A DNA stretch of 64,000 nucleotides from Nitrospirota bacterium (GCA_040754455.1 JBFMCP010000004.1:52413-116412); one strand, 5' to 3'; shown: positions 39,518 to 60,996, counted from the first letter of the stretch. A program made the numbers and translations. Notes: generated by a model from the letters alone, not told the origin.

Positions 39518-39711
39518 TTCTGGAATCTCTTTCATGATAACCGTATAACTATAATGTTTAGGTTCATCTAAGGGAAAAAGACAGATCGGTGAAAAAACCG
39601 CCTGCCTACAGAGGCACGTTGGCTTTACATGAGACCTCCCGAAGGAGACTATTTTAATATCCAAATTAAAATAATAACTTATATAATATCTCCTCTTGTT
39701 TTTTGCCGGTC

Positions 39712-39747
39712 CGGTGAAAAGACCAGACTTGCCTGGTCTTTTCACCG
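39712..39747. promoter_or_regulatory. Perfect 15-bp inverted repeat, putative activator binding site
   Basis: CGGTGAAAAGACCAG-acttgc-CTGGTCTTTTCACCG; related site CGGTGAAAAAACCG at 39587-39600. Confidence 0.7.
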
Positions 39748-39810
39748 AAATATTGAGGGGAAAGTAGCATCTGAACATTAAAACTATTGAAATTTAATAT
39801 TAATAAATCC

Positions 39811-39826
39811 AGGCACACCACTTGCT
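39811..39826 (+). promoter_or_regulatory. Sigma54 promoter for the multiheme cytochrome
   Basis: AGGCACACCACTTGCT, GG-N10-GC. Confidence 0.75.
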
Positions 39827-39987
39827 TGTGGCAAAGTTGCCGAAATGCGCAGTTTCGAAATGCAAAGCCCCGGAGAGGGCTCAAGGGAGGTGGTTGCAGC
39901 GAGGCGTTTACAAAAGGGAGGGTGAAAACTCGACAAGTTTTGGTTCTTTTGACACAGTCTTAGTGAAACGAGTTTGAAGGAGGCTCA

Positions 39988-41037
39988 ATGAAGACAACAA
40001 AAATGTTAGTAGTATTGGCAGTAGTGGTAGCGATCGTAGCATCGTTCTCAATCGTCTATGCAGGAAAAACACCGCCGCCGACCACCAATCTTATCGTTGG
40101 CCGCCCGGCAAAGGGAATGTACTGTGCTGATCCTGCCGGCTGGATTAACGCAGGTTACAATATTTATGTCTGGGGTAATGCAACACCGGTAAAAGCCCAG
40201 GTCTATGATGCAGAGGGCTATCTGCTGCTTCCCGCCACCGGCGTGACCTGGACCGTGCAGGGTACCGGCGAAACCGGCACCATGACAGTCGGCGATTCGA
40301 CCAATAAAGTATACACTGCCACGCCGAAGAGCCTGGCGGCAACCAATATTTTCACCGGCGACTCGAATATTACCTACACCGCCGACGGCAAGAGCTTCAG
40401 CGGCGTTATCAGGAGATGGAATGCAAAGTGCGACGGCTGCCATTCCGTACCGCCGCCCCACGCCATCCAGAATGCAGGCAGCGCCGGCACCAGCACCTGC
40501 CGTAACACTGCCTGTCATGCGGAGTTCGGATCCAAGATGATGTCGTCACATGCCTACAGGGTTCCTGTTGCCGAGCAGACCACGTCTGACGGCTGCTACC
40601 GCTGCCACCCGAGCCCCTGCTACGGCGGAATCCACAAGGACAAATTCCCGAATGACTCCATCGGTTGCGTAACCTGCCACGGCAGTCTTGCCGACGGTGC
40701 TGTCGGCCAGGGCAAATGGCCCGGCCAGCTCGGCTTCCCGAAGTGCCAGGACTGCCATGTGAGCGCACCTGATCAGCCTGTTCCTTACGCCACGAACACC
40801 GGCGTAGAGTACAAGAGCTCGGTGGGCCACGGCAGGAAGAGGAGCAGCCTTCCGAAGAACCTCTGCATTACTTGCCACAACTCCATGCACATGGAGACGA
40901 AGCCGATGAGCTGGGGTGACGGCGTGAACAACAACTGCCAGGTATGCCATAAGAACAAGCCCACGAACAACAACATGGGTCCTGTCTGCGGCAACTGCCA
41001 TGTTGATTCGTTCAACCCGCATCTTGTTGTGAAGTAA
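39988..41037 (+). CDS. Exported multiheme c-type cytochrome (7 CxxCH plus 1 CX4CH)
   Basis: Signal peptide; CDGCH, CRNTACH, CYRCH, CVTCH, CQDCH, CITCH, CQVCH, CGNCH. Confidence 0.9.
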   Translation: MKTTKMLVVLAVVVAIVASFSIVYAGKTPPPTTNLIVGRPAKGMYCADPAGWINAGYNIYVWGNATPVKAQVYDAEGYLLLPATGVTWTVQGTGETGTMTVGDSTNKVYTATPKSLAATNIFTGDSNITYTADGKSFSGVIRRWNAKCDGCHSVPPPHAIQNAGSAGTSTCRNTACHAEFGSKMMSSHAYRVPVAEQTTSDGCYRCHPSPCYGGIHKDKFPNDSIGCVTCHGSLADGAVGQGKWPGQLGFPKCQDCHVSAPDQPVPYATNTGVEYKSSVGHGRKRSSLPKNLCITCHNSMHMETKPMSWGDGVNNNCQVCHKNKPTNNNMGPVCGNCHVDSFNPHLVVK

Positions 41038-41583: not shown

Positions 41584-42273
41584 TTAAAACGTGGTGAAAG
41601 CAAAATAAATTCCGACTATCATCAGCACGGCGCCGCTGATCTTTTTTGAGTAGAGGGAGAAGTTCCCGACGCCCCTGGCGCGTATGATATTTTCAGTAAA
41701 GCCCATAGAGAGCCCGGCGATAAAGATGAGCGCACAGTGTCCGATTGCATAGACGAACAAAAGGGCGCCTCCGTAGAGGATATCACCTTGAGTCGATACA
41801 TAGGCGAGGATGACCGCAAGCACCGGCGTTGCGCAGGGAGAAGAGACCGTGCCGGTGATGAGACCCAGCAGGAACGCCCCCCATAATCCTCTGGTCCTGA
41901 TCTCCCGTGTTTTCTGAAAGGGGAGGGGGATCGCTATAATACCCATGAGCTGCAACCCCATCAGTACGGCAATGACGGCCAGTCCGATGTAAAGCCATTT
42001 TCCCATAAAGCCGAGGAATTGTCCCATCACCGATGCCGCAGCGCCGAGCATGGTGAAGGTGATGGAGAGGCCGAGAATGAACACGAGGGAGTAGAGCGCG
42101 GCCTTTTTCTTGTTCCCTTCGGAATAGCCGCCCACATACCCGATTATCAACGGTATCGCAGCGAGAACGCAGGGGCTCGCTGCAGATACGAGACCGCCAA
42201 TGAATACGGCAAGGAAAGCAAGGCCGTGCTGGTCCTGGATGATTGATTGAATGTTGCTTAGAATTGTTTCCAC
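41584..42273 (-). CDS. CcdA/DsbD-type transmembrane thiol-disulfide electron transporter
   Basis: SPCVL and SPCATP motifs in a hydrophobic protein. Confidence 0.9.
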   Translation of the reverse strand: METILSNIQSIIQDQHGLAFLAVFIGGLVSAASPCVLAAIPLIIGYVGGYSEGNKKKAALYSLVFILGLSITFTMLGAAASVMGQFLGFMGKWLYIGLAVIAVLMGLQLMGIIAIPLPFQKTREIRTRGLWGAFLLGLITGTVSSPCATPVLAVILAYVSTQGDILYGGALLFVYAIGHCALIFIAGLSMGFTENIIRARGVGNFSLYSKKISGAVLMIVGIYFAFTTF

Positions 42274-42280
42274 TTTATCT

Positions 42281-42997
42281 CTACTTCCCCTGCCTCAGCT
42301 TTTCCGCAAAATAAGAAGGCAGTCCGCTTTCGATAATCGCTGAAGCGGTCTTTTCGACATCATAGGGAATTCGAACAAATTCGTTTTTTACCCCATCCTG
42401 TGTTATCTCGACGAGGGTGATACAGGTCCTTGGGTCACCGTCTTTCGGCTTCCCGACGCTTCCGGCATTTATGAAGACCTTGCCCCCGATATCCTTCCGG
42501 TATGGCTTATGGGTATGCCCGTAAATAAGGATGTCGGCATCTACCTTCTCAGCCATCTCTTCAAAGAACTTTTCCGGCCGCTCCTCATACCAGTAGAGAT
42601 TATTTTTCTTTGGGGTTGCATGAAAAATTATCACCTTTTTACCGTCGACCGTTAAGGATATTTCAAAAGGCAGCGTTCTCATATACTCTTTACTCTTTGG
42701 GGATGCGTGCTTTTTCGTCCATTCGAAGCCCAATGATGACATCTCAGCCTGAATCGGATCTTCGTATTTGCATCCGCAATGCTCCGTGTCATTACCCACT
42801 GTTTCGTCGTAGTTGCCCTGCACTCCGCTGATTTTATGCTCGATGAGGAAATCTATTACCTCGTTTACAAAAGGCGCATATCCCCCCAGATCTCCGAGAT
42901 GATATATCTGCTCCGCGCCTCTGGAAACAGCCTCCTGATACGCAGCTTTGAGGGCTTCCAGATTCCCATGAATATCTCCCAATATCCCTATTTTCAT
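42281..42997 (-). CDS. Metallophosphoesterase with a CGC insertion
   Basis: DIHGN, HLGD, GNYD, GHTH, NAGSVG; HCGCKY segment. Confidence 0.88.
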   Translation of the reverse strand: MKIGILGDIHGNLEALKAAYQEAVSRGAEQIYHLGDLGGYAPFVNEVIDFLIEHKISGVQGNYDETVGNDTEHCGCKYEDPIQAEMSSLGFEWTKKHASPKSKEYMRTLPFEISLTVDGKKVIIFHATPKKNNLYWYEERPEKFFEEMAEKVDADILIYGHTHKPYRKDIGGKVFINAGSVGKPKDGDPRTCITLVEITQDGVKNEFVRIPYDVEKTASAIIESGLPSYFAEKLRQGK

Positions 42998-43027
42998 TAT
43001 TCCTCTCGACAGCGCCTGTGCGTTGCC

Positions 43028-43408
43028 TCACAAGCCCATCTTTTTTAATACAGGGACGATCTCCTCATAGGAGAAATAGCCCATATGTCTGTAGACTTCT
43101 TTGCCGTTTTTATCGAGAAAGACCTGTACAGGGATCATATACACGCCGTATCTCATCGCCGTCTCCCTGTCTTTCTTGACATCGATGAAGATCACCTCGA
43201 GCTTCCCCTTGTAATTTGTTGAGAGCTTTTGCATCACCGGCTTCATCTGTTCGCAGGGAATGCAGCCTACCGAGCCCAACTCCAACATAACCACTTTGCC
43301 CTCTTTTTTCGCCTTTTTTAATGTCGCATCAAGCTGATCTGCACTGCTCAAGCCAGCTGTCAGCAGAATACTCAGTGCAACAATCGGGACCAGCAATCTT
43401 TTTTTCAT
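43028..43408 (-). CDS. Exported thioredoxin-family protein
   Basis: Signal peptide, CIPC, IPVQVFLD..GKE. Confidence 0.85.
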   Translation of the reverse strand: MKKRLLVPIVALSILLTAGLSSADQLDATLKKAKKEGKVVMLELGSVGCIPCEQMKPVMQKLSTNYKGKLEVIFIDVKKDRETAMRYGVYMIPVQVFLDKNGKEVYRHMGYFSYEEIVPVLKKMGL

Positions 43409-43432
43409 TCTTCCCTCTCGTAAATTTTGATC

Positions 43433-44515
43433 TTAGAGCGGACTTGTCTCTTTTACTCTGCAATATTCCACTGTGAAGTATTTCCTCTGGAAATACCGTG
43501 CTACAGTAACGAGCCCGATAAGAACAGGCACCTCAACCAGGGGCCCTATGACTGCTGCAAAGGCCGCCCCTGAGTTGATCCCGAAGACCGCAACAGCCAC
43601 CGCAATGGCCAGCTCGAAGTTGTTGCTTGCAGCGGTAAAGGACAGGGTAGCCGTCTTCTCGTAATCTGTCCTGAGCTTATGCCCCATGTAAAAGGAGACG
43701 AGGAACATAACGATGAAGTAAATGAGGAGCGGTATTGCAATGCGCACGACATCGAGCGGCAGCTTGACAATGTAATTGCCCTTCAACGAGAACATGACGA
43801 CAATGGTGAAGAGCAACGAGATGAGGGTAATCGGGCTTATCTTCGGTATAAAGACACGATCATACCAGTGCCTGCCTTTTATTTTGATAAGGCTGAACCG
43901 GGTGAACATGCCGGCGATAAAGGGAATTCCCAGATAAATGAAGACACTTTCGGCAATCTGGCCGATGGTAACTTCAACGACAGCTCCTTTAAGCCCGAAC
44001 CAGGTAGGGAGAATCGTAATAAAAATGTATGCGTAGACCGAATAGAAGAGCACCTGGAATATGGAATTAAAGGCGACCAGTCCAGCAGCGTATTCCGGGT
44101 CGCCGCAGGCGAGGTCGTTCCATACGATTACCATAGCGATGCAACGGGCCAGGCCGATCATGATGAGGCCGACCATATACTCCGGATAGGAGTTGAGGAA
44201 AACAATCGCAAGGACAAACATCAAGAGGGGACCTATGATCCAGTTCTGGATAAGTGAGAGGCCGAGAACCCTTTTATTTCTGAATACCTCGCCGAGCTCC
44301 TCATACTTCACCTTCGCCAACGGCGGATACATCATCAGGATAAGCCCGATAGCAATAGGTATGTTGGTGGTGCCTACCTGAAAGCGGTTGATAAAACCCT
44401 CGGTGCCGGGAATAAAGTACCCCAACCCGACACCCAAAGCCATCGCCGCAAATATCCACACGGTCAGATAACGATCGATGAAAGAAAGCCTTTTCCCCTC
44501 GTTGTTAGCCATCAC
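43433..44515 (-). CDS. acr3: ACR3-family arsenite efflux transporter
   Basis: [45 protein letters not shown]. Confidence 0.97.
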
Positions 44516-44603
44516 AATTCCCCCTTATATTTAAGCGTAGTATCCGAATCTATGATTCTTATTTATCTCATTTATTGTTTTTTTCTTCGGCGACGGTGAA
44601 GCC

Positions 44604-44984
44604 TCAGCCTTTTCCACAACACACTGTCTTGCCCTTGATAGAGACTATTTTATCCTTTGAGTTCTTCCCCTTGAGGAATGCCTCAAGTCTTTTTTTGTCC
44701 TCTCGAACATCACTATCCGAAATCCTCTCGAGCACCGAAAGAATCAAAAACCGCTTGAACATATCTGAATCGTTTATGCTGTAGTGAATCCATTTGCCCT
44801 GTTTACGGTCCCTGATCAATCCCGCCTCTTTCAGGATTTTGAGATGGAACGATATCTTTGGTTGAATCGTATCGAGGGAGGCGACAATATCGCATACACA
44901 GAGCTCTCCACGTTCCAGAATCTTTAGTATCCTGAGCCGCGTATCATCGGAAAGCGCCTTGAGGGTATTCAATACATCTTGCAT
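44604..44984 (-). CDS. arsR: ArsR repressor
   Basis: KALSDDTRLRI, ELCVCDI box, C-terminal CC. Confidence 0.92.
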   Translation of the reverse strand: MQDVLNTLKALSDDTRLRILKILERGELCVCDIVASLDTIQPKISFHLKILKEAGLIRDRKQGKWIHYSINDSDMFKRFLILSVLERISDSDVREDKKRLEAFLKGKNSKDKIVSIKGKTVCCGKG

Positions 44985-44988
44985 AGCG

Positions 44989-45228
44989 CTAAACCTCTCC
45001 CTTGATCAATTCCTTCACTTTCTCGGGGCTCGGCAAGGGCTTTCCCGAATGCTTCAGCTTGCCGTTGACCACGAGGCCCGGCGTCGACATTGTATATTTC
45101 AAAATCTCCTGCATATCCGATATCTTTTCGACCTTTGCGTCGATACCGAGTTCCTTAACAGCCGATTTTGCCATCTCTTCCATCTTGTGGCAGTTAGCGC
45201 AGCCTGGTCCCAAAACCTTAATTTCCAT
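44989..45228 (-). CDS. Small redox-active disulfide protein (thioredoxin_3 type)
   Basis: IKVLGPGCANC, STPGLVVNG. Confidence 0.9.
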   Translation of the reverse strand: MEIKVLGPGCANCHKMEEMAKSAVKELGIDAKVEKISDMQEILKYTMSTPGLVVNGKLKHSGKPLPSPEKVKELIKGEV

Positions 45229-45259
45229 TGTCAGTCCTCCCTTTCATAAAAAGTGTAAT

Positions 45260-45721
45260 TTATGAGCAGCACTCATTTTTACATTTGCAGACATTAAGTT
45301 TCATCTCCTGAGCATTCGTACCGGCAGTAGAGCCTAAGGCTGCCTTGGAAATCGCCTCGACCAGCATCTGCTCGGGTACTGACTCGTAGACTTTTCCATC
45401 ATAGATAAAGGTATTACAATTCGATGCCTTCCCTGTCAGAGCGGAACAGGAGGGGCAGGAGGTCATCTGCGGCCTCTCTTCGCCGAGGATTTCCATAAGA
45501 TCTTTCCCGTCTATGCGAATGGTATTGGACAGGTGCAACTGCTCAGCTCCCAGTGCAATTTCTCTCAGTTCCAGGTCGATCCCTGCTGGTTTTAAAGCAA
45601 AGCGCATATCCTCAACGACTTTCTTCACCACTCCTGCGCTCTCTCCGCACCTGCAACAGGTCGTGCCTTCCTTTACATACCGATACCATTCGATGATTAT
45701 TTTTCTCTTCTCGTCGTTCAT
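45260..45721 (-). CDS. DUF2703-like Cys-rich thioredoxin-fold protein
   Basis: TCCRC, SNTIRIDG, CPSC..C, C-terminal CKC..CC. Confidence 0.75.
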   Translation of the reverse strand: MNDEKRKIIIEWYRYVKEGTTCCRCGESAGVVKKVVEDMRFALKPAGIDLELREIALGAEQLHLSNTIRIDGKDLMEILGEERPQMTSCPSCSALTGKASNCNTFIYDGKVYESVPEQMLVEAISKAALGSTAGTNAQEMKLNVCKCKNECCS

Positions 45722-45740
45722 TTGTTAATATCCGTTCTCC

Positions 45741-46691
45741 TTATAGAATTGCATTAAACAGATAGCCGACTGCTATGATGGTTACCGTCATTATCCCGAC
45801 AAAAACACCGAGAAGCTGAACCTTCAAGACCTTCCGCAGGATAATCATTTCAGGCAGCGATAATGCCGTCACTGCCATCATGAATGCAAGTACCGTTCCC
45901 ACGCTGAGCCCCTTTTCCATGAGCGCATAGACAATCGGTATCACCCCGGCTGCATTGGAGTAAAGGGGCACGCCCAATGCGACCGCCACGGGGACGGCGA
46001 AGGGATTCTGCGGACCGGCGTAGTGGACTAAAAAGTCCTGCGGCACATAGCCGTGGATGAATCCGCCTATGCCGATAGCTATAATGATGTAAAGCCATAC
46101 CTTCTTCAAGATATCAACGGTGTTCCACTTCGCATATGCCAGTCGCTCCTTGAAGGCCTGTTTTATCACTTCTTGTCCCTGTCCGGTGTGAATCTTGTAG
46201 ACATACTCCTCAACCCACTTTTCTAGTCTAAGCTTTCCAATGATGAGTCCTCCGAAAATAGCGACAAGAAGCCCTGTCCCCATATATATTGCCGCTACTT
46301 TCCATCCGAAAAGCCCGAACAGCAGGACGACGGCCACCTCGTTCACCATAGGTGATGAAATTAAGAATGAGAAGGTCACCCCGAGCGGAACCCCTGCCTC
46401 GACGAATCCGATGAATAAAGGAACCGCAGAGCAGGAGCAGAAGGGAGTGACGACGCCGAGCAATGCGGCGAGGATATTACCTATAAACTCTTTTTTATGA
46501 GAAAGGATCTTCTTCGTCCGTTCCGGGGGGAAATAGCTCCTGATGACCGAGACGATGAATATAATGACCGAAAGGAGAAGAAAAATCTTGAGCGTATCGT
46601 ATATGAAAAACTCCAGAGCGTCGGCCAGGCGCGAACCGTGCTCCAACTTCAAAGTCGTGTAAGTGACATATGCGGCAAAGCTCTTCAGCAT
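45741..46691 (-). CDS. arsP: ArsP-family (DUF318) permease
   Basis: TPFCSCS, PLGVTFSFLISSPMVNE, VTALSLPE; ATG at 46691 after AAGGAGG. Confidence 0.88.
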   Translation of the reverse strand: MLKSFAAYVTYTTLKLEHGSRLADALEFFIYDTLKIFLLLSVIIFIVSVIRSYFPPERTKKILSHKKEFIGNILAALLGVVTPFCSCSAVPLFIGFVEAGVPLGVTFSFLISSPMVNEVAVVLLFGLFGWKVAAIYMGTGLLVAIFGGLIIGKLRLEKWVEEYVYKIHTGQGQEVIKQAFKERLAYAKWNTVDILKKVWLYIIIAIGIGGFIHGYVPQDFLVHYAGPQNPFAVPVAVALGVPLYSNAAGVIPIVYALMEKGLSVGTVLAFMMAVTALSLPEMIILRKVLKVQLLGVFVGIMTVTIIAVGYLFNAIL

Positions 46692-46720
46692 GTAATTTCC
46701 TCCTTCGTCTGCATGAACAT

Positions 46721-46749
46721 ATATAAACAAAAATTGATATGAATGTCAA
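46721..46749 (-). promoter_or_regulatory. Sigma70-type -35 overlapped by a putative ArsR operator
   Basis: Minus strand TTGACA followed by the imperfect palindrome ATATCAA-N6-TTTATAT. Confidence 0.7.
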
Positions 46750-46819: not shown

Positions 46820-47938
46820 ATGCTGCTGACCGAGCCCTACTATCTTTTTGCGTTGAACCTTCTTTTAGGCGCCGTCCTCGGTGCCGTTTTTTACAAGTCC
46901 GATTATTGTATGGCCGGCGTGTTCAGGGATGTGTTCCTGTTCAAACAGTACTCCCTGCTCAGGTCGCTTCTTCTCCTCCTGGTGATTTCAATGGCGTTAT
47001 TCTACGTGGCCCGAACGGCGGGCCTTGTCACGTTTTACCCCCCTCCGACCTATACGTATCCATCACTGGCTACCCTTTTCGGCGGAGTGGTGTTTGGTAT
47101 GGGAATGGTTTTGTCGGGCGGCTGCGTCGTTAGTACACTCTATAAAATGGCGGCCGGCAATCTGACCAGCCTCGTAGCGTTTGCAGGCATTATTGCAGGA
47201 TCCCTTATGTATGCCGAGTCCCATCCGTTCTGGGAGTCTTTTCGTCAGCGTACTGTAATTGCGACCCGGATGTCCTTATTCGAGAAAACGCCCGATGTCG
47301 AAATGGTCGTTGTAACAGCCATGACCATCGGCTTTCTGGTGCTCTTTGTGAAATGGATGCGGCAGGATAAATGGAGGATCGATGCGTTTGCTGAGGGATA
47401 CCTGCAACCATGGAAGGCGGCGATCATCATTGCCATCGTAAATGTTCTGGCGTATATCTTTTCAGGGTGGCCCATCGGTATCACCACGGCGTATGCGAAA
47501 TTGGGGGCCTATATTGAAAATATTTTTATTCCCTCTCGTCTTGCAACGCTGGCATATTTTAACCAGGATTCTGTAGTAGTCCCTCTGTCTGGAAGCATCA
47601 TCAGCGGCGGCGCAGGTCCCAGGGTCGATGTCATATCTTTTACCGAACTGCCTCTTGGTATCGGGATTGTCGCAGGAGCATTTTTTACATCGGTACTCCT
47701 GAGAGAATTCAAAATATACGGACTGCCCCCGAGAAGGCAGCTTATGGCCGCTCTTGTGGGTGGAATGCTTATAGGATTGGGCACAAGAATCGCAAAAGGC
47801 TGTAATATAAAATTTATCTTGGGAGCGCTGCCGCTTTTTGCCCTGCAGGGGATTGTATTCTTGTTCGGCATGGTCGCCGGAACATATGTTGGCGTTCTAC
47901 TGTTGAAGAGGATAGTGTTCGAGATAAAGGGGGAGTGA
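46820..47938 (+). CDS. YeeE/YedE (TsuA-like) sulfur-compound transporter
   Basis: Duplicated hydrophobic repeat with three Cys: DYCMAG, GMVLSGGC, RIAKGCNI. Confidence 0.9.
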   Translation: MLLTEPYYLFALNLLLGAVLGAVFYKSDYCMAGVFRDVFLFKQYSLLRSLLLLLVISMALFYVARTAGLVTFYPPPTYTYPSLATLFGGVVFGMGMVLSGGCVVSTLYKMAAGNLTSLVAFAGIIAGSLMYAESHPFWESFRQRTVIATRMSLFEKTPDVEMVVVTAMTIGFLVLFVKWMRQDKWRIDAFAEGYLQPWKAAIIIAIVNVLAYIFSGWPIGITTAYAKLGAYIENIFIPSRLATLAYFNQDSVVVPLSGSIISGGAGPRVDVISFTELPLGIGIVAGAFFTSVLLREFKIYGLPPRRQLMAALVGGMLIGLGTRIAKGCNIKFILGALPLFALQGIVFLFGMVAGTYVGVLLLKRIVFEIKGE

Positions 47939-47940
47939 AA

Positions 47941-48189
47941 ATGTCAGAGAGAAAGACCATAGACCTCAACATACTGGGACAGGTGTGCCCTGCCTGTCTG
48001 CTTGTCGCCATCAAGGAGATGAACAATAATCGTAACGAGTTGAAGAGCGGCGAGGCCGAGCTTGTCATAAAGACGGACCACCGGTATGCAACGAGAACAA
48101 TCCCAGATTCTGCAAAAGCCATGGGATTTAACGTCGATATCAAAAAAGAAGAAACCTACTACGAAATAAAGATAAGTAAAAGACAATGA
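47941..48189 (+). CDS. TusA/YeeD-family sulfur carrier (CPAC variant)
   Basis: IDLNILGQVCPAC, L.IKTDH..A..TIP; about 80 aa; follows yeeE. Confidence 0.82.
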   Translation: MSERKTIDLNILGQVCPACLLVAIKEMNNNRNELKSGEAELVIKTDHRYATRTIPDSAKAMGFNVDIKKEETYYEIKISKRQ

Positions 48190-49883
48190 CCCCTGAGCCG
48201 GAAGACAACAGCCCTTCGCCGAATACTCCGCAAAATGACGATCATGAATTGCAGGAGACCAACCGGCGCTATGCAACATACATCAGGGAAAAGGTCAACC
48301 AGCTTCTTCAGGTGATCGGAACGCTCCCCCTGAGCCCAGAAGAACTGGATGACGATACCCTGCTCGACCTCGACCCCATCGGTATTGTAGCGGGTTCATT
48401 CGAACAGATACTCGAATACCATAAGGAGATTATTACCGAGCTTCGTATGGCCCGCGACGAGCTCCAGGCCATATTCGATGCTACCGGTGTAGGAATCTCC
48501 ATTATCGATAATGACTTCAGAATTATTAAGTGCAACGAAAAGCAGAGGGAGCTTCTGGTCGATAAGGACATGCACGATATTACCGGCAAATACTGTTACG
48601 AGGTCTATTGCAATAAAGAGTCGCCGGGGCTTGACTGTCCTGCGGTTGACACCTTGGCGACAGGCAGATCAGTCATTATTCGTGAGGTTGAGAAGAAGGG
48701 GAAGCATTTTCAGATAGTAACCACCCCGTTCAAGGACGGCGAGGGCGGCGATGTTGGAGTCATAGAGGTTCTGCTCGATATAACGGAAAAGAAGCGGGCC
48801 GAGGATGCGGAGAAGGAACAGAGGGGCTTCTACCTGACTGAGAAATCGAAACTTGCCACTATCATCCAGAGCCTGTCAGACGGGCTTTTTGTTACCGACA
48901 AAGAGGGGACTGTTGTGTCGTTCAATAACGCCGCGCAGAAGATAACAGGCTATTCCGAAACGGAAGCGGTCGGCATGCCATATGAGAATTTTTTGGCTAT
49001 GCTTGCTCAAGGGACTGCGGGAAACCATATCAGCGGCAAGGATTTCAGGAATACCGAGTTGACCGTTCTCACAAAGGATAAACAGCAGCTTGTCCTTTCC
49101 CTTACGTCAGCCCTGGTGAAGGACAGCGAGGACAGGGCGATAGGGAAGGTTTTTACCTTCAGGGACGTCACCGAAGAAAAGCAGCGGCAGGAGGTCTATC
49201 ACCGGACCGAAAAATTGGTTGCCCTGGGCCAGCTGTCTGCCGGAATAGCCCATGAGCTGAATACTCCTCTGGGGAATATCCTGGGATACGCGCGCCTCAT
49301 GATGAAAGACAAAAATCTGTCATCTCTTCAGAAGGAACGGCTGGAGATCGTTGCTGAACAGGCAAAAAAGAGCAACGCCATCATAAAGGACCTTTTGAGT
49401 TTTGCGCGGCAATCGAATCCTGCCTTGAGAAATATAAGAGATGTCGATATCAACGCCATCGTGACCGATGTGTTGAGAATACTCAGAACCGAGACGGAAA
49501 AACACGGCATCAGCGTGCATGCCGGCCTGGGAAGTCTGTTGACGATAAAGGCAGACGCCAGACAAATAGAGCAGGTGATACTCAATATCGTGCTCAATGC
49601 CATCCAGGCCATTGGGGATAACGGGGAGATATGGGTGAAGACAGCCTGTAAAGACAGGTCGGTGATCATCGAGATCAAGGACAATGGCCCTGGCATTCCT
49701 GATGAGGTCAAACCAAGAATTTTCGATCCTTTCTTTACTACAAAGCCGGTGGGCAAGGGAACAGGACTCGGGCTCTCAATATGTGCAGGGATAGTCAATG
49801 AGCACGGCGGATCGATCGATGTAGAAAGCAGAGAGGGCAAGGGGACTACTTTTACTATCGCCTTGCCGGTCCATAATTCGTAA
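48186..49883 (+). CDS. Cytoplasmic two-PAS sensor histidine kinase
   Basis: No TM segment; Cys-rich first PAS; AHELNTPL; ATGA overlap with the tusA-like gene. Confidence 0.9.
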   Translation: MTPEPEDNSPSPNTPQNDDHELQETNRRYATYIREKVNQLLQVIGTLPLSPEELDDDTLLDLDPIGIVAGSFEQILEYHKEIITELRMARDELQAIFDATGVGISIIDNDFRIIKCNEKQRELLVDKDMHDITGKYCYEVYCNKESPGLDCPAVDTLATGRSVIIREVEKKGKHFQIVTTPFKDGEGGDVGVIEVLLDITEKKRAEDAEKEQRGFYLTEKSKLATIIQSLSDGLFVTDKEGTVVSFNNAAQKITGYSETEAVGMPYENFLAMLAQGTAGNHISGKDFRNTELTVLTKDKQQLVLSLTSALVKDSEDRAIGKVFTFRDVTEEKQRQEVYHRTEKLVALGQLSAGIAHELNTPLGNILGYARLMMKDKNLSSLQKERLEIVAEQAKKSNAIIKDLLSFARQSNPALRNIRDVDINAIVTDVLRILRTETEKHGISVHAGLGSLLTIKADARQIEQVILNIVLNAIQAIGDNGEIWVKTACKDRSVIIEIKDNGPGIPDEVKPRIFDPFFTTKPVGKGTGLGLSICAGIVNEHGGSIDVESREGKGTTFTIALPVHNS

Positions 49884-49893
49884 TGGGGGGCAG

Positions 49894-51237
49894 ATGAAAA
49901 AGCCCGAGATACTCGTTGTCGATGATGACATGAGGATGCGGCAGCTTATCAGCGATGTGCTCAAAGAGGACGGTATCGTTCCTCTTCTGACCGATGACAG
50001 CAGGGAAGCGCTCAGGATCATTGACAACCGGACTATCGATATCGTCATCACTGACCTGAAGATGCCCCATGTCGATGGCATTGGAGTGTTGGCGCATGCA
50101 AAGGAAGTCAATCCTGATACGCTTGTCATCGTCGTTACCGGCTATGGCACCGTTGAATCGGCCATTGAGGCAATGAAGAAAGGCGCATACGACTATATTC
50201 AGAAGCCCTTCGAGCCTGATGAGTTCCTGATGCTTTTCAGAAGGGCGCGGGAGCATGTTCATCTGGTGCGTGAGAACAGGCAGCTCCTGAGAGAGATAGA
50301 GGGATGTAAATATGACGAAATTATCGGGACGAGCAAGGCCACCTCTGATGTAAAGGAGCTGATCGCCCGCATCGCGCCCTTTGATACGACGGTCCTCGTA
50401 CAAGGCGAGACCGGCACCGGCAAGGAACTGGTGGCGCGGCTCATTCACGAAGGCAGCAAGAGAAGGAATAAGCGGTTCCTTCCGGTCAACTGCGCCGCCC
50501 TCTCAGAGTCGCTGCTCGAAGCCGAGCTCTTCGGCCATGAGAAAGGCGCCTTCACCGGTGCCGAAATGCAGAAGAAGGGGCTGTTTGAGTCTGCGCAGGG
50601 AGGGACGATAGTGCTCGATGAGATGAACGCCACTTCCACCAATTTCCAGGTGAAACTTCTGAGGGTGCTTCAGGAGGGCACGCTTTTGAGGGTAGGCGGA
50701 ACAGAGCCGATAAAGGTCGATGTGCGTATTATTGCGACTTCAAATGTGCCGCTCGAAAAAGAGGTTGCCGCCGGTAGATTCAGGCAGGACCTGTTCTACA
50801 GACTGAATGTCGTTACCGTCGAGATTCCCCCGTTAAGGAAACGGAAGGAGGACATTCCCTCGCTTGCCTATTATTTCCTTGGTAAGTACGCGAATAAGCA
50901 TAACAAGAAGGTGCATGGCATTGCTACCGAGGTGCTCAAGCGGCTTATCGAGTATTCCTGGCCGGGCAATGTGAGAGAGCTCGAGAATGTGATTGAAAGA
51001 GCGGTGATCATGGAGGGCAGCGATGAGTTGCAGTTTGTTCATTTGCCGAAAGATTCCCGGAGAGATTTGGATTATCAGGATATGTGCTCGGCGTTGATGA
51101 GCATCGACGATATGGAAAAAATCCTTATACAAAGAACGCTCGAAAGTCTCCAGGGGCAGAAGGTTAAAGCCGCTGAGGTTTTGGGAATAAGCACCACATC
51201 GCTTTGGAGAAAGATCAAAAAGTATCATTTAGAATAG
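49894..51237 (+). CDS. Sigma54-dependent response regulator
   Basis: REC, GETGTGKE, GAFTGA, HTH. Confidence 0.93.
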   Translation: MKKPEILVVDDDMRMRQLISDVLKEDGIVPLLTDDSREALRIIDNRTIDIVITDLKMPHVDGIGVLAHAKEVNPDTLVIVVTGYGTVESAIEAMKKGAYDYIQKPFEPDEFLMLFRRAREHVHLVRENRQLLREIEGCKYDEIIGTSKATSDVKELIARIAPFDTTVLVQGETGTGKELVARLIHEGSKRRNKRFLPVNCAALSESLLEAELFGHEKGAFTGAEMQKKGLFESAQGGTIVLDEMNATSTNFQVKLLRVLQEGTLLRVGGTEPIKVDVRIIATSNVPLEKEVAAGRFRQDLFYRLNVVTVEIPPLRKRKEDIPSLAYYFLGKYANKHNKKVHGIATEVLKRLIEYSWPGNVRELENVIERAVIMEGSDELQFVHLPKDSRRDLDYQDMCSALMSIDDMEKILIQRTLESLQGQKVKAAEVLGISTTSLWRKIKKYHLE

Positions 51238-51243
51238 CGTTTC

Positions 51244-51275
51244 ATTTCATTTTGAAATATATTTCATTTTGAAAT
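51244..51275. promoter_or_regulatory. Tandem palindromic upstream activator sites
   Basis: Two identical ATTTCATTTTGAAAT copies at 51244 and 51261. Confidence 0.75.
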
Positions 51276-51318
51276 GCCCTTGCTTTTCTAACTCTCTGAA
51301 ACTTAAGTAAATGCTAGC

Positions 51319-51334
51319 TGGCACGCCTATTGCA
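51319..51334 (+). promoter_or_regulatory. Sigma54 promoter for the rhodanese gene
   Basis: TGGCACGCCTATTGCA. Confidence 0.92.
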
Positions 51335-51377
51335 CTTCCCATAGCAAAAATAACGAAAAAGTCCGAAGGAGGATACC

Positions 51378-52313
51378 ATGAAGAGCAAGGGATATGTAAT
51401 AGTGGCGCTGATAGGTTTATTTCTTTTGAGCGCAACATCTGCAATGGCCGGAATCCTGGTAAACGCCGACTGGGTGAAGGCGCACATGAATGATCCGAAC
51501 GTCATTATCGTGGATGTCCAGAACAAGCATGACTCTTACGAGAAAGGGCATATTCCCGGTGCGGTAAAAGTAGATCGACATGTGGATCTCGAAGATTACA
51601 CGCGCTATCCTGCAAACAAATACCCGCAGAAAGAGCAGTTTTTACCCCTTATGTCCCGTCTGGGCATAAATAACAAAGCCACTGTCGTTGCGTATGATGA
51701 TTCGCAGGGCATCTTTGCGAGCAGGATGCTCTTCGTGATGGAGCTTTTCGGCCATGACGCCGGCAAACTCAAACTTCTCGACGGCGGCATCAAGGCGTGG
51801 CAGGCAAAAGGCTATTCGCTTACTACGGAAGCCCCCAAAGTCGCTAAAAAGACTGCCTACAAAACGTCTGGCCCTAATAAGAATCTTCTGGTCTCCTGGA
51901 GTGAAGTATACAGGGATGTCGTTCAGCATCAGAACCCCGATGTGGTGCTGCATGATGCGCGACCTGTAGCCGAGTATTCAGGCGAGAAGGTAAGGGCGAT
52001 CCGTGGCGGCCATATCCCAAACGCCATAAATGTCACGGGTGTCGATGCAGCCAACAATAAAGAGAATCATACCTTCAAAGACCCGGAAGAGATAGGCAAA
52101 GCTTTTGAGAATGCCGGGATTACCAAGGACAAGACGATTTATACCTACTGCCATAGCTCTGACAGGGGAGCGCATGCGTATGTCGTACTGAAACACATCC
52201 TCGGCTATAAGAACGTAAAGATCTATGACGGCGCATGGAGCGAATGGGCGGTAATGACCGCTTTGCCTGCCGAGAACGAGAAGTTGGCTGTAGCACAGAC
52301 GCAGGCAAAGTAG
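51378..52313 (+). CDS. Periplasmic tandem-domain rhodanese/sulfurtransferase
   Basis: Sec signal (AMA), GHIPGAV, LDGGIKAW, GGHIPNA, active site YCHSSDR, YDGAWSEW. Confidence 0.92.
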   Translation: MKSKGYVIVALIGLFLLSATSAMAGILVNADWVKAHMNDPNVIIVDVQNKHDSYEKGHIPGAVKVDRHVDLEDYTRYPANKYPQKEQFLPLMSRLGINNKATVVAYDDSQGIFASRMLFVMELFGHDAGKLKLLDGGIKAWQAKGYSLTTEAPKVAKKTAYKTSGPNKNLLVSWSEVYRDVVQHQNPDVVLHDARPVAEYSGEKVRAIRGGHIPNAINVTGVDAANNKENHTFKDPEEIGKAFENAGITKDKTIYTYCHSSDRGAHAYVVLKHILGYKNVKIYDGAWSEWAVMTALPAENEKLAVAQTQAK

Positions 52314-52340
52314 CATACCGCCAACAGGTAACAGCCGGGC

Positions 52341-52379
52341 AAAAAGGAAGGCGGGGCATCAGCACCCGCCTTCCTTTTT
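52341..52379 (+). terminator. Intrinsic terminator
   Basis: AAAAAGGAAGGCGGG-N9-CCCGCCTTCCTTTTT. Confidence 0.88.
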
Positions 52380-52533
52380 GTTTTCCGGCGGATTCCCTCA
52401 CGCCGCGTACGCTGTATCAGAAATCGGCATTCGGTATGCTAGAGCTTGATAAGACAGGGTGGATGAAGATAAGATATAACAAATGGCTGCTGATTGCCTG
52501 GAGGGGCATGATCCGTCGGGCCTAAATGATGTA

Positions 52534-54240
52534 ATGATGCGAAAGCGATTGAACCTACTTTTTATTTTTCTTTCGGTAGCACTGATAGTCCTTTGCCTTC
52601 CACAGCATGCGTTTCCCCAGCAGCAAGATCCCATCAAGATCGGTGTCGCCTCAATGATCACACCTGTTGATACAGTAAAGTACTATCAGGAGATCATCGA
52701 CTACATTGGCGAACAGATTAAACAGCCGGTACAGATGGTGCACCGCCGGACATACGGGGAAATGGACACGCTCCTCGAGGGGGGTGAGGTTGAAGTTGCC
52801 TTTATCTGTTCCGCACCTTACGTGAAGAACAGGGAAAAGTTCGGGGTGGAGCTCCTGGTAGCACCGAGTGTCAACGGCAAGGCAGCCTATCATTCCTATA
52901 TAATCGTCCATAAAGGCAGCTCTCTGCGCTCATTCGCTGAGCTCAAAGGGAAGACCTTTGCCTTTACCGATCCGAAATCCAACTCCGGATACCTTTACCC
53001 CTCCTACCTGTTGAAAACAATGGGGGTGGCCCCTGAAAAGTTTTTCAAGAAGTACAGCTACAGCTACAGCCATAACAAATCCGTCGAGCTTGTTGCAAAG
53101 AGGCTGGTCGATGCAGCTGCGGTCGACAGTCTCGTTTATGACTATATGCTGAAAAAGAAATCTCCTTATGCACAGCAAGTAAGGATCATCAAGCGCTCTC
53201 CTCCCTACGGCATCCCGCCTGTTGTCGTTTCAAGAGGCTTCGATCCTGCATTGAAAGAGAAGATACGAACTGTCCTGCTGAACATGCACAAAACGCAAAA
53301 AGGCAAGGCCATTCTCGATGCAATGATGATCGATAGCTTCGTGCAGATAGCGGATACCGCCTACGATTCGATCAGGAAGATGGAGGGGGCGCTCACCGCT
53401 GGGATGAATGATGCACACACGGTAAGGGGCGGCCGGATGGTCCGTTTCGGGGTGATCCCGAGGGACAACCCGCGCATCCTCTATGAAAAGTACCAGCCTC
53501 TCCTCGATTATCTCTCGGCAACTACGCCCTATACCTATGAACTCGTTCTCAAGAAAAACTATGAGGAGACAGTGCGGGGGCTCGGTAACGGGGAGATCGA
53601 TGTGGCCCTGCTCGGCCCGCTCACGTATCTCGAAGCCCGTGCAAGGTACGGCGTTATCTGTATCCTGAAGCCAAGGGGAAGAGACGGCAGCGCAACGTAT
53701 AAGAGCATCATCGTCACGAAAAAGGACGCCGACATAGCTGCCATCTCCGAACTGAAGGGCAAACGGGTTGCCTTTGCCGCTATGAAGTCAACATCGGGCA
53801 ATCTCATCCCCCGCTATCTTCTTGCGAATTCGGGAATACACCTGAAGGATCTCGATCGGTATGCCAATTTCGACTACCACGACTCCGTGGTCAAGGCGAT
53901 CCTGAAAGGGCAATATGATGCGGGATCGGTGAGGGATTCGGTTGCGCAGAAGTACGCGAAGCTCGGCATTAGAGCGATAGCCGAATCAGAGACTGTTCCG
54001 ACGGGACCTCTTGTCGCCAGCCCGAAGACATCGTCCTCCGTACAGGAGGACATCAAAAAAGCGCTGCTCGGACTCAATGCCGACGACAACAGATATAGAA
54101 CCATTACAAGTAAACTCGATGAAGACCTCAGGAACGGATTTATAGGGGCCTCGGACAGCGATTATGTGCGCATCCGTGAGCAGATCAACGCAGTCCCCCA
54201 GACCTGCGGCAGGGGTTGTCATCCGAAACTGCGCTTATGA
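52534..54240 (+). CDS. Tandem two-domain PhnD-fold periplasmic sensor protein (AioX/ArrX-like)
   Basis: Two repeats (KGKTFAFTDPKSNSG and KGKRVAFAAMKSTSG); FICSAPY in domain 1; C-terminal CGRGCH. Confidence 0.85.
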   Translation: MMRKRLNLLFIFLSVALIVLCLPQHAFPQQQDPIKIGVASMITPVDTVKYYQEIIDYIGEQIKQPVQMVHRRTYGEMDTLLEGGEVEVAFICSAPYVKNREKFGVELLVAPSVNGKAAYHSYIIVHKGSSLRSFAELKGKTFAFTDPKSNSGYLYPSYLLKTMGVAPEKFFKKYSYSYSHNKSVELVAKRLVDAAAVDSLVYDYMLKKKSPYAQQVRIIKRSPPYGIPPVVVSRGFDPALKEKIRTVLLNMHKTQKGKAILDAMMIDSFVQIADTAYDSIRKMEGALTAGMNDAHTVRGGRMVRFGVIPRDNPRILYEKYQPLLDYLSATTPYTYELVLKKNYEETVRGLGNGEIDVALLGPLTYLEARARYGVICILKPRGRDGSATYKSIIVTKKDADIAAISELKGKRVAFAAMKSTSGNLIPRYLLANSGIHLKDLDRYANFDYHDSVVKAILKGQYDAGSVRDSVAQKYAKLGIRAIAESETVPTGPLVASPKTSSSVQEDIKKALLGLNADDNRYRTITSKLDEDLRNGFIGASDSDYVRIREQINAVPQTCGRGCHPKLRL

Positions 54241-55739
54241 GCACGATCGTTACTGCTGCCAAAAACATCGGGAGCACCTTCGGGCGCCGCCTTGCCCGGC
54301 TGAGCCTCCAGTCGAAGTTCATTCTGATTACCGCATTGGCGATCATCCTGTTCATGGCCGTTATAGGGTACGTGGCGGTTGAGAGAGAAAAATACCTCAT
54401 GTATGCCGAGATCGAAAAGAAGGGACGGGTGCTCGGCGAGACCCTCGCTATTCCCATAATCAACGATCTCATCTATGAAAAGTTGGGGCTTGTCGAAGAG
54501 GGCGGACTGATCGACAACTACATTATGGAGATATTCAGCCGGAAGGATGTGGACCTGCTGTATATCACGATCCTCGATGAAGAGGGGAAAGTTATCTCCC
54601 ATAACAACATTACCGAATACGGCAAACTTTATACCGATGAGCTCACCAGGAAGGCATTACAGGCAAGCAGGACCGTTGTCCAGCAGTTTTCCGTAAAGGG
54701 CCATGATGCTCTGGATTTCGGCGTTCCCCTTTCGATCGGTAATAAGCGATGGGGCACGCTCAAGTTCGGACTTTCCCTTGAGGCGGTCGAGCAGGAAATC
54801 GCCGGTATGGTGAAGAATATCATCATATTCACACTCGTTCTCATCGGGATCGGCTTCATCATTATTCTTCTTTTGAGCAGGCGCTTTATAAAGCCCATCA
54901 CCTCTCTTGCGAGCACGATGGAGAAGACGGACGCTGATTTGCTTGATGCAAAAGTGAAAATAAAGGGACATGACGAGCTCGCCATGCTCGGCGAGCGGTT
55001 CAACAGCATGATCGATCGTATAAAGCAGGCGAACGAGGAACTCAAAAAAGCCCATGAGAAGATGATTCAGTCCGAAAAGCTCGCCTCCATCGGTATTCTC
55101 GCCTCGGGAGTCGCCCATGAGATCAACAACCCTCTCGGCGGGCTGTTCAATTGCCTCCGTATGCTCAGGCAGAATGATGACCCGGCATTCAGGGAAAAGT
55201 ACCTGGGCCTTATCAATGAAGGGCTCGAGAGAATAGAAAACACGGTGAATAAACTGCTCTGGATGTCGCGGAAGGCGGAGCATATCCCCGTTGATGTTAA
55301 CGTAAAAAACGCAGTGGAGAGCGTTTATTCCTTTATTGAATACAGACTTAAAAAAGGCCGGATTGCGTTTGCCAATGAGGTGCCCGCCGACCTGCGTTTC
55401 CAGTTCGATATGCACGATTTGCAGCAGCTGCTGCTCAATCTCTTCATCAACGCCGTCCACGCCATGGATCAGGGAGGCACTCTCAGGGTCAGGGGCTCCA
55501 GAGATAATGGAACAGTGAGGATAAAGGTTATCGATAACGGGTGCGGTATTGCCCAGGAGCATATCGGCAGGATATTCGATCCATTCTTCACGACCAAAGC
55601 TCCCGGCGAGGGGACAGGACTCGGTCTCTGGTTGACCTATGAGATTGTAAGAAACTACAATGGAGAAATTTCCGTTGAAAGCGAAAGGGGGAAAGGCAGT
55701 ACATTTACGATAAGTATTCCGGTGCAACAGTCACTATGA
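54237..55739 (+). CDS. HAMP sensor histidine kinase (ArrS-like by position)
   Basis: Two TMs, [16 protein letters not shown] overlap with the upstream gene. Confidence 0.9.
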
Positions 55740-57073
55740 AAGAGACCATACTTATCATTGAAGATGACAAGCTGATGAGGGTGACCCTTGAGGATGCCCT
55801 GATGGCAGAGGGCTATGAGGTCCTGTCCTTTGATTCGGGGACAGCGGCACTGGATGCCCTTAAAGGCTCTCCTTGCAATATTATTGTTACCGATGTCAGG
55901 CTTCCCGATATCGATGGTCTCGATGTCCTCAGGGAGGTTGCTGCAACGAGTAATGCTCAGGTTATTGTTATGACTGCCTTCGGCTCCATCAAAGATGCCG
56001 TAGAAGCAATGAAGCTCGGCGCCTTTGATTACATAACAAAACCATTTTCCCTCGATGAATTTCTCCTCCTTATCGAACGGGCGCTGGAAGTGCAGCGACT
56101 CAGAGAAGAGAACATCAGGCTGAAAAAAGACCTCAGCCGTTGCTACTGCTCTCCCAACATCATCGGTGAAAGCGAAACAATGAAGAAGGTCTTTTCCTTG
56201 GTCGACAGGGTTTCGGCTTCGGAGTCGACCGTGCTCATCCTCGGCGAGAGCGGGACGGGCAAGGAGCTCGTTGCCACGACGATCCATTACCAGAGCAAGC
56301 GGAAAGACAAGCCTCTGATCAAAGTGAACTGTGCGGCGCTCCCGGAGAGTCTCATTGAAAGCGAATTGTTCGGCCATGAGAAGGGGGCATTTACCGGAGC
56401 GATCAAAAGAAAACCCGGCAGGTTCGAGCTCGCCGGCGGCGGCACCATTTTCCTTGATGAGATCGGAGACCTTCCGTCTGCTGCGCAATCCAAGCTCTTG
56501 AGGGTATTACAGGAAAAGTCGGTCGAAAGGATCGGCGGTACCGAAACAATCACCGTGGACGTGAGAGTCATTGCGGCGACGAATAAAAATCTTGAGGAAG
56601 AGGTGAAGAGCGGGCGCTTCAGGGAGGACCTCTATTACCGACTCAATGTGATACCCATAACTATTCCTCCGTTGCGGGAGCGGAGGGAAGATATTCCCCA
56701 CCTTATTGATCATTTTATGAACAAATGCAAAAGCAAGCGGCAGGGTGCCGTCCGTTTTTCAAAAGAGGCGCTCGATACGCTCATGAACTATGATTATCCG
56801 GGCAATGTGCGAGAACTGGAGAATATTCTGGAGCGATGCGTTACCCTGTCTGCTTCCGATACCATCAGGAGGGAAGACCTGCCCGCCTCTCTTTTGAAGG
56901 ATGCTCACCTCCGGAAGCATCTTACTCTTTCAGATGTAACTGCCGAAGCTGAAAAGGAGCACATCAGCAGGGTATTGAAGGAAGCGGGAGGAAATAAAAC
57001 CAAAGCATCCGAAATGCTCGGCATCAGCAGAAAGACCCTCTGGGAAAAAATGAACGCATACGGGATGAGTTAA
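55736..57073 (+). CDS. Sigma54-dependent response regulator (ArrR-like by position)
   Basis: REC, GAFTGA, HTH; upstream of arrA. Confidence 0.92.
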   Translation: MKETILIIEDDKLMRVTLEDALMAEGYEVLSFDSGTAALDALKGSPCNIIVTDVRLPDIDGLDVLREVAATSNAQVIVMTAFGSIKDAVEAMKLGAFDYITKPFSLDEFLLLIERALEVQRLREENIRLKKDLSRCYCSPNIIGESETMKKVFSLVDRVSASESTVLILGESGTGKELVATTIHYQSKRKDKPLIKVNCAALPESLIESELFGHEKGAFTGAIKRKPGRFELAGGGTIFLDEIGDLPSAAQSKLLRVLQEKSVERIGGTETITVDVRVIAATNKNLEEEVKSGRFREDLYYRLNVIPITIPPLRERREDIPHLIDHFMNKCKSKRQGAVRFSKEALDTLMNYDYPGNVRELENILERCVTLSASDTIRREDLPASLLKDAHLRKHLTLSDVTAEAEKEHISRVLKEAGGNKTKASEMLGISRKTLWEKMNAYGMS

Positions 57074-57191
57074 TAAAGAATTATCCCCTCTGTTGGTGAT
57101 GCACTTCGATTTAAAATATGCTTGATTACGCCTTTTTATGTGCCTGCCGGCGCACTTTTTTCTACACTTGCCTTATTACGATTAGCCAAAC

Positions 57192-57300
57192 TGTTACCTT
57201 TTTGTAACAATCCGGTTTTGCCTCGACCCAACTTGCTTGTCTTTGAAAGATAAAGACAAAATGTATTCGCTGCGATGGTGGGTGTTACGTTTTGGTAACA
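57192..57300. promoter_or_regulatory. Two TGTTAC-N6-GTAACA palindromes, putative activator sites
   Basis: 57192-57209 and 57283-57300. Confidence 0.75.
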
Positions 57301-57341
57301 GTCTGGCTTCTTAAAGTCCAATGATATCAAAAGGTTAATTA

Positions 57342-57357
57342 GGGCATGAATATTGTT
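57342..57357 (+). promoter_or_regulatory. Candidate non-canonical sigma54 promoter
   Basis: GGGCATGAATATTGTT, GG-N10-GT instead of GC. Confidence 0.45.
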
Positions 57358-57401
57358 TAAGTTTTCTGAGGTTATTTCGATCTTATCTGAAGGGGGATTA
57401 T

Positions 57402-57572
57402 GTGTTCGGATTAGGCGTCACCGAGATCATACTTATCAGTGCTATTGCTCTTATTTTCTTTGGGCCGTCAGGACTTCCTCAATTGGGCAAAAACATAGGT
57501 AGTGCATTAAGGAATTTCAGGGGTGCCCTTTCCAGGGAAGAGGGAAGCGAGAAAAAAAGAGTGGAGTTGTAG
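57402..57572 (+). CDS. tatA: Twin-arginine translocase subunit TatA (56 aa, missing from the ORF track)
   Basis: Manual translation MFGLGVTEIILISAIALIFFGPSGLPQLGKNIGSALRNFRGALS...; GTG start after AGGGGG. Confidence 0.88.
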   Translation: MFGLGVTEIILISAIALIFFGPSGLPQLGKNIGSALRNFRGALSREEGSEKKRVEL

Positions 57573-57628
57573 GTCGGGCATGTTATGAAGCGATGTTTGT
57601 ATCTCATTATTAATCAAGATCGGAGGGA

Positions 57629-60986: not shown

Positions 60987-60996
60987 CATGCTTTGC

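Follow-up and report, generated by a model that had tools for sequence, protein, structure and literature searches.

The sensing of external sulfur by anaerobic sulfur-cycling bacteria is poorly known, and the sole worked-out case of signalling through a YeeE-family protein ends on a repressor. In that case, SoxT1B of Hyphomicrobium denitrificans reports external sulfur to the ArsR-type repressor SoxR and signals via its three essential cysteine residues; a TusA gene lies adjacent, and a second YeeE module for import is often present (PMC11582611). A cysteine relay from channel to carrier also underlies thiosulfate uptake by YeeE–YeeD (TsuA–TsuB), in which thiosulfate modifies YeeD and the modified carrier binds the channel less (PMC11073785), and a yeeE–tusA pair occurs in Desulfobacterota and Nitrospirota as part of the YTD cluster, yeeE–tusA–dsrEFH type II (PMC13293266 and PMC8780430). 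Here we analysed a locus at positions 46820–52313 of a 64000-nucleotide stretch from a Nitrospirota bacterium (GCA_040754455.1, JBFMCP010000004.1:52413-116412; the whole stretch is hereafter called the window), in which a yeeE–tusA pair is followed by a sensor kinase beginning with a small domain designated N0, a sigma54 activator and an exported rhodanese. We lean towards reading this module as a transporter-fed sulfur sensor, with a ligand other than an arsenic compound, that switches on one periplasmic sulfurtransferase.

The genes from yeeE to the activator form one unit, which is followed by tandem operators, a sigma54 promoter, the rhodanese gene and a hairpin. The module is single-copy in the 3.27 Mb genome, and its features are as follows.

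46820–47938, + strand: sulfur channel of the YeeE/YedE family, triad subfamily, with C30, C102 and C328 (PF04143, 176 bits; match to 6LEO, E 1e-15)
47941–48189, + strand: TusA/YeeD-like sulfur carrier with CP[AS][CTS] replacing CPxP (PF01206; own family consensus)
48186–49883, + strand: soluble sensor kinase, N0-PAS-PAS-HisKA-HATPase (ATGA overlap with tusA; Pfam domains)
48240–48461, + strand: N0, a helix-loop-helix domain of ~70 residues without an established name, with a HAMP-like second helix; putative TusA-reading input (alignment; structural model)
49894–51237, + strand: sigma54 response regulator of the NtrC type with REC, sigma54 AAA+ and HTH_8 domains (PF00072, PF00158, PF02954)
51245–51274, + strand: tandem operators TTTCA-N3-TGAAA, 17 bp apart (shuffle test; kept in related modules)
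51319–51333, + strand: sigma54 −24/−12 promoter (motif match TGGCAC-N5-TTGC)
51378–52313, + strand: exported tandem-domain rhodanese with the single catalytic C258 in the loop CHSSDR, subfamily CHS[GSA]DR (PF00581 twice; 1UAR)
52334–52389, + strand: intrinsic terminator hairpin (−47 kcal/mol, z −7.6)

The channel scores far above the PF04143 cut-off of 27 bits and matches the solved YeeE structure 6LEO, and its C30, C102 and C328 are conserved in 63 of 63 aligned rows; the closest match, at 91% identity, comes from a Nitrospirota genome. The cut-offs of the TsuA equivalog models were not reached (NF052577, 97 of 400 bits; NF041049, 73 of 645 bits), and the top NCBIfam match was the selenium-linked YedE/FdhT model at 113 bits, far below its cut-off of 350. 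TusA (PF01206, 43.5 bits against a cut-off of 28.6) contains C16 and C19, found in 61 and 30 of 61 rows respectively. The CPxP motif is absent from these triad proteins, with cysteine (30 rows), threonine (18 rows) or serine (13 rows) but never proline at the fourth position, and on this alignment triad TusA is a subfamily of its own. Whereas YeeE–YeeD serves assimilatory uptake with a CPxP carrier, here the carrier has CP[AS][CTS] and a signalling protein follows.

The three genes travel together. Among the best 80 of 578 yeeE matches, the order yeeE–tusA–N0 protein was found at 75 loci, the other five stopping 3–568 bases past yeeE at contig ends; because only these best matches were used, the rate is valid only for the close subfamily. 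In the opposite direction, an N0 profile matched 33 of the 251 genomes of the window's class at 34 places, all at E ≤1e-29 and none from there to 1e-8. At 33 of the 34 places tusA and yeeE lie directly upstream, and the genome of the exception has a second, complete copy. Judged from gene order, the triad is near-obligate in both directions. The same profile found 139 proteins among 1.84 billion representatives, with N0 nearly always at the start, and had no match in a plasmid collection. In the 45 proteins scanned of 82, N0 is followed by HisKA kinases (13), hybrid kinases (13), GGDEF-EAL proteins (12), PAS-only proteins (6) or a short piece (1). A constant input combined with exchangeable outputs in this way characterises sensor domains. 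Named hosts include Nitrospirota, Desulfobacterota, Beta- and Gammaproteobacteria, many with a second yeeE–tusA downstream; the neighbours of triads lacking sigma54 showed no common theme (56 of 142 candidates scanned). A small domain through which kinases and cyclic di-GMP enzymes are connected with a sulfur channel and its carrier in at least three phyla would be a testable general mechanism. Variants seen along the way include YeeE and TusA fused in one frame (L048:10001-11365), N0 severed from its PAS part (L016:11507-12440) and a 152-residue protein bearing two N0 stretches (P0241). At three loci (L024:12-6349, L117:8720-14000 and L273), the triad has as its neighbour a distinct binding protein–kinase–sigma54 system that includes cytochrome-like genes and double rhodanese genes.

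The kinase, whose start overlaps tusA by ATGA, has two PAS domains, HisKA and HATPase by Pfam, and is read as soluble because its top 19-residue hydropathy is only 1.07. The initial annotation had called it a soluble, Cys-rich PAS kinase; the solubility stood, but not the cysteine richness, as the protein has six cysteines in 565 residues, four of them in PAS1. Among 82 relatives, C151 is conserved in 78, C142 in 65, C137 in 63 and C116 in 41. N0, at the start of the kinase and absent from the initial annotation, is its most conserved feature, with the alignment motif YIRxKVNQLLxVMGTxPLRPEELDDxTLxxLDPIGIIAxSF. It gave no consistent Pfam match and no sequence match in the PDB, the Pfam HAMP model (PF00672) was unmatched in 62 N0 members, and no conserved cysteine is present (7 cysteines across 62 rows). 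The predicted model is a helix-loop-helix with a predicted local distance difference test score (pLDDT) of 92. Foldseek found nothing at E 0.001 with this model, and a wide structural search gave Z scores at background level only; the HAMP structures 4I5S, 3LNR and 4GN0, ranking 2, 3 and 6, lie within that background (Z 4.9–5.4, root-mean-square deviation 4.2–4.8, 60–65 residues aligned). HAMP domains are helix-connector-helix units with the signature DEIGxLAxxFN, which the second helix of N0 resembles. Profile comparison of N0 with 44 HAMPs by hhalign gave a probability of 70 and a score of 25 against 9.9±2.1 for 60 shuffles, and in the ESM Atlas the matches were to clusters without a name, apart from one labelled putative HAMP at 0.86. 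From alignment and model, N0 looks HAMP-like, although this is unproven. A complex of TusA with N0 was predicted at a score of 0.52 compared with 0.01 for the best control, with at least 88% of contacts agreeing between runs and a partner pLDDT of at least 72. The prediction tool rates such a score as weak: in its calibration, 116 of 157 solved pairs and 2 of 215 mismatched pairs attained the mark, and the band up to 0.60 contained 18 solved pairs and both mismatches.

On the output side, the operator TTTCATTTTGAAA occurs twice at 51245–51274 (one match against zero in 100 shuffles), and this pair is the genome's top tandem site, scoring 44 compared with 25 for the runner-up. The window has two sigma54 sites where 0.09 are expected, and among the 21 exact sites of the genome, operators accompany only the one at 51319. 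As its own genome has a single strong operator pair, the activator probably controls no gene beyond the rhodanese, and a larger regulon was rejected for this reason. Also rejected was an operator common to the module and to the arr genes on its right, which use the different sequence TGTTAC-N6-GTAACA. A sigma54 motif lies behind the activator in 28 of the 40 regions examined, four of the misses being rhodanese loci without an activator, and the operator pair is kept in 18 of those 28 promoter regions, these sets including two duplicate pairs.

Behind sigma54 triads lie genes of sulfur trafficking: rhodaneses of the window's subfamily or of other kinds, the latter with a second yeeE–tusA, and also ExtH and the porin ExtI. 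ExtH is above its cut-off at L039 and L006, and ExtI is found at L039 and L125. At L126 the targets are ExtJ, PhsA/Psr-like subunits, the window's rhodanese subfamily, ExtM and ExtO, and extKL is described as a polysulfide reductase required for S0 respiration (PMC13510729). Some triads appear, by eye only, to control a YTD-like operon downstream. In the YTD cluster itself the third gene is the sulfur transferase DsrEFH, whereas in the window it is a sensor, with no dsrEFH directly after yeeE–tusA. Another target subtype (L023:14253-19494 and relatives) comprises a CQTG[ST]R rhodanese, an M54 peptidase, two small proteins, a secreted protein whose sequence finishes with GGC, a second YeeE of 468 residues, TusA and Usp. 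The small proteins behind this CQTG-type rhodanese are DsrE/DsrF-like by eye and had no match in Pfam at 1e-12 or in NCBIfam at 1e-8, so the label YTD-like is unproven.

A periplasmic rhodanese of a sulfur respirer is known in Sud of Wolinella. The window enzyme has an N-terminal hydrophobic stretch and, by eye, an AxA cleavage site; its sole cysteine, C258, aligns with those of 1UAR and 3HWI, of which 1UAR is the nearest solved structure (E 5e-48). Two rhodanese domains with one active cysteine in a six-residue loop place it among the tandem-domain sulfurtransferases of the thiosulfate/mercaptopyruvate sulfurtransferase (TST/MPST) type. It is thereby like ExtH, the target at L039 and L006, and like further rhodaneses from the periplasm of sulfur respirers (NF040901; PMC12142623), but unlike ExtH it has no lipobox by eye, has the loop CHSSDR and stays below the model's cut-off (117 of 200 bits). 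An arsenate reductase role of the Acr2/Cdc25 type was rejected on loop length, since 62 of 62 rows have YC-x4-R and not HCx5R (PMC10135228). The close subfamily is rare, being present in 15 of 317 genomes of the order and, within the phylum to which G287 belongs, in 2 of 401, and a metagenome scan with its alignment found mostly distant TSTs, L126 (48%) being the only close one. The terminator, sought in 52314–52395, had been missed by a simple scan. The same subfamily also appears in two chemotaxis-like operons, one with a PstS-like binding protein, a methyl-accepting chemotaxis protein (MCP) and the rhodanese between ars and arr (G094, L119:12052-16433), and one with the order rhodanese–cheW–MCP (G074, L121:6119-9570); here it may be the periplasmic partner of the chemoreceptor. 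In G222 and G237, genomes placed in different families, 5-kb contigs with rhodanese–arsD–arsA (L122 and L123) are 99.9% identical, which would reflect either recent transfer or binning carry-over.

In the mechanism we favour, YeeE would admit a small sample of an external sulfur compound, most likely thiosulfate, along its three cysteines and load TusA at C16; loaded TusA would then release YeeE, as modified YeeD does, and bind N0, a membrane-free HAMP-like input, altering kinase activity. The phosphorylated activator would bind the tandem operators and open the sigma54 promoter, and the exported rhodanese would move sulfane sulfur in the periplasm of this dsrAB-bearing organism. What is observed is the gene order, the coupling, the three relay cysteines, the near-obligate triad and the conserved operator and sigma54 promoter. 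The initial annotation had described the three-Cys yeeE, the tusA, the ATGA-coupled kinase and the activator as one unit, followed by tandem operators, a sigma54 promoter and an exported rhodanese with its own terminator between ars and arr, and all of these parts were found (shuffle test, motif counts, hairpin z −7.6). Its proposal that the transporter–carrier pair is the sensory input is supported by the near-obligate triad, the SoxT1B precedent (PMC11582611) and the weak complex prediction, and the operator pair conserved in 18 of 28 promoter regions supports a link from the activator through the operators to the rhodanese. In SoxT1B–SoxR the receiver is a repressor and the terms 'histidine kinase' and 'two-component' are absent from the paper (PMC11582611), whereas in the triads it is N0 on a kinase, a GGDEF-EAL protein or a PAS protein, with sigma54 in the window. 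The module is apparently an undescribed variant of YeeE-based sulfur signalling, SoxT1B-like in working but not a member of that system, and a search of the open-access literature (subscription papers and bioRxiv supplements lay outside its scope) found neither the triad nor N0 nor a thioarsenate–rhodanese pathway described. With four regulatory genes, one promoter and one target enzyme, the window is a minimal test case.

Several points weigh against the sulfur-sensor reading. Its ligand is putative, with thiosulfate the likeliest candidate; N0, which has no conserved cysteine, cannot take sulfur itself, and the actual sensing could reside in the cysteines of PAS1. The likeness of N0 to HAMP spans 25 columns, in the second helix only, the structural prediction lends the TusA–N0 complex weak support, and the triad rate is that of the close subfamily. 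Expression data are available for L039, which is the Desulfurivibrio dismutans locus RS05145–RS05170 (coordinates match). On formate/nitrate ExtH and ExtI were hardly detected, and they had no value on S8 at pH 10 with polysulfide accumulating (PMC12142623), which argues against polysulfide or S0 as a sufficient inducer there; this strain does not use thiosulfate. Thiosulfate, selenium species, thioarsenate or a sensing of scarcity remain as candidate inducers. In the same proteome YeeE, TusA and the kinase were undetected, which fits low-copy signalling parts, and the activator was low in both conditions (PMC12142623); six locus tags sought in the supplement of PMC13490349 were not present there. 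Finally, among 53 triad loci besides the window (at least 5 kb on both sides, six duplicates removed), ars genes flank 6 of 21 sigma54 triads compared with 1 of 32 others (p 0.012, kinship ignored), and the close rhodanese lies ≤7 kb from ars genes in 7 of 20 loci, compared with ~1% of the window's genome being that near acr3 or arsP.

The absence of a conserved cysteine from N0, the weak TusA–N0 score and the conservation of PAS1 C151 (78 of 82 relatives) and C137/C142 (about 64) would also suit a scheme in which the three genes are merely co-transcribed, YeeE–TusA importing sulfur for use and the kinase sensing cytoplasmic sulfane sulfur or redox via its PAS1 cysteines. We hold this to be quite unlikely: N0 remains with yeeE–tusA where the PAS1 cysteines are lost (L051, L075 and the betaproteobacterial GGDEF-EAL forms), like cysteine patterns occur in unrelated PAS domains of the same genome, and many genomes keep a second yeeE–tusA downstream for bulk import. 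A role of the module in detecting and processing oxyanions of selenium or tellurium seems highly improbable. The YedE/FdhT model is YeeE's top NCBIfam match, the targets include ExtH and ExtI, which are named for selenite/tellurite reduction, and induction on S8 was not seen in D. dismutans; however, the match is far from its cut-off, the remaining targets are Psr-like and yeeE–tusA genes, and the ext operon enzyme favours polysulfide over selenite (PMC13510729).

Arsenic enters through the position of the module, which is wedged between a divergent ars cluster on the left and regulators with arrAB on the right.

41584–46730, − strand: divergent ars cluster (arsP, DUF2703, ArsE-type thioredoxin, arsR, acr3, trx, metallophosphoesterase, dsbD)
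52483–61728, + strand: binding protein–kinase–sigma54 regulator, own operators, tatA-like open reading frame, arrA, arrB, chaperone

From this arrangement, the initial annotation had proposed that thioarsenate is sensed via YeeE–TusA and desulfurated by the rhodanese in the periplasm, the compartment of ArrAB; we consider this model, in which ArrAB would receive the resulting arsenate, unlikely. In its favour, the sole same-genus genome (G094) also has the rhodanese between ars and arr, though without the module; among the other genomes of the class, arrA-like genes are present in 6 of the 11 that have the close rhodanese compared with 35 of the 239 that lack it (kinship inflates this difference); and As(III) induces a rhodanese beside ars/arx in Thioalkalivibrio jannaschii (PMC6620896). 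The ars label also falls in four places on the YeeE tree (46 rows), namely the window, a clade of its own family in which another module subtype occupies that position, a clade of a second family and L045. Against it, arrA is near 0 of the 53 other triads and ars genes are near 7, so that modules mostly occur away from arsenic genes and thioarsenate specificity is not supported. An arrA-like gene occurs in 9 of the 33 class genomes with N0, all in the window's family and, the window excepted, on another contig or 850 kb away (G007); outside this family, arrA is found in 0 of 23 N0 genomes compared with 31 of 184 without N0. Among 50 locus genomes examined of the 80, 10 have an arrA-like gene, ~28 kb from the module in G264. 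As arr moreover has its own regulators and a different operator, the supposed coupling to ArrAB is likewise unsupported. Next to the close rhodanese, arrA was found only in the window and G094 (20 loci), and the same rhodanese subfamily is part of a Psr/ext operon at L126 and neighbours nuo genes at L270. Monothioarsenate entered yeast and plants via phosphate transporters (PMC13051750), and an open-access literature search gave no text naming both 'thioarsenate' and 'YeeE'.

Near the other triads arrA was not seen, but ars genes recur beside the close rhodanese and on the YeeE tree. The seven ars-near rhodanese loci are those of the window, G132, G202, G729, G094, G222 and G237 (the last two with 99.9% identical DNA). 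With arrA adjacent at only two of the 20 loci, the association is stronger with ars islands than with arr, and a common site of insertion may explain it. A reverse link, in which the sensor reports thiosulfate and the rhodanese sulfurates exported arsenite to thioarsenate or aids ars-type detoxification, seems very unlikely to us. Recurring neighbours are indeed the efflux genes acr3, arsA, arsD and arsC (near L003, L004 and L114) and not arr, rhodanese–arsD–arsA share one strand in L122/L123, and rhodaneses hand sulfur to thiophilic acceptors (PMC10135228), of which arsenite would be one by inference. However, in the available DNA ars genes are absent from 12 of the 20 loci of the close rhodanese, several of their contigs being short, and one more has ars genes only at 21 kb; L122 and L123 count once; and the yeeE promoter region reads, by eye, as separate from the ars promoter. 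Somewhat unlikely, in our judgement, is a lineage-restricted triad branch recruited repeatedly to arsenic islands, with the CHSxDR rhodanese interconverting thioarsenate and arsenate/arsenite in the periplasm under a sulfur or thioarsenate signal. Were it true, arsenic–sulfur species would have a dedicated enzyme and regulator for the first time, and an enzyme so far missing from the thioarsenate chemistry of groundwater, paddies and hot springs would be identified. Our best reading of the position between ars and arr is an arsenic/metal island that took in such modules more than once, with arr under separate control and the module itself a sulfur sensor.

In the surroundings of the module, the Arr models are the best matches of arrA and arrB, yet the scores, 1153 of 1600 bits for arrA and 252 of 450 bits for arrB, stay below the curated thresholds. 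The arr operators lie at 57192 and 57283, and a 56-residue open reading frame at 57402–57572, TatA-like by eye, stands between them and arrA. Positions 34833–41037 of the window contain a further set of binding protein, kinase and sigma54 regulator, behind which a secreted multi-CxxCH protein is encoded (39988–41037; weak cytochrome c7 match). The same genome also has dsrA and a second ars cluster, arsP–arsR–acr3, which is 85–95% identical to that of the window and is divided between two contigs (G000:C75 and C49), the latter of which also bears an ExtI-like porin.

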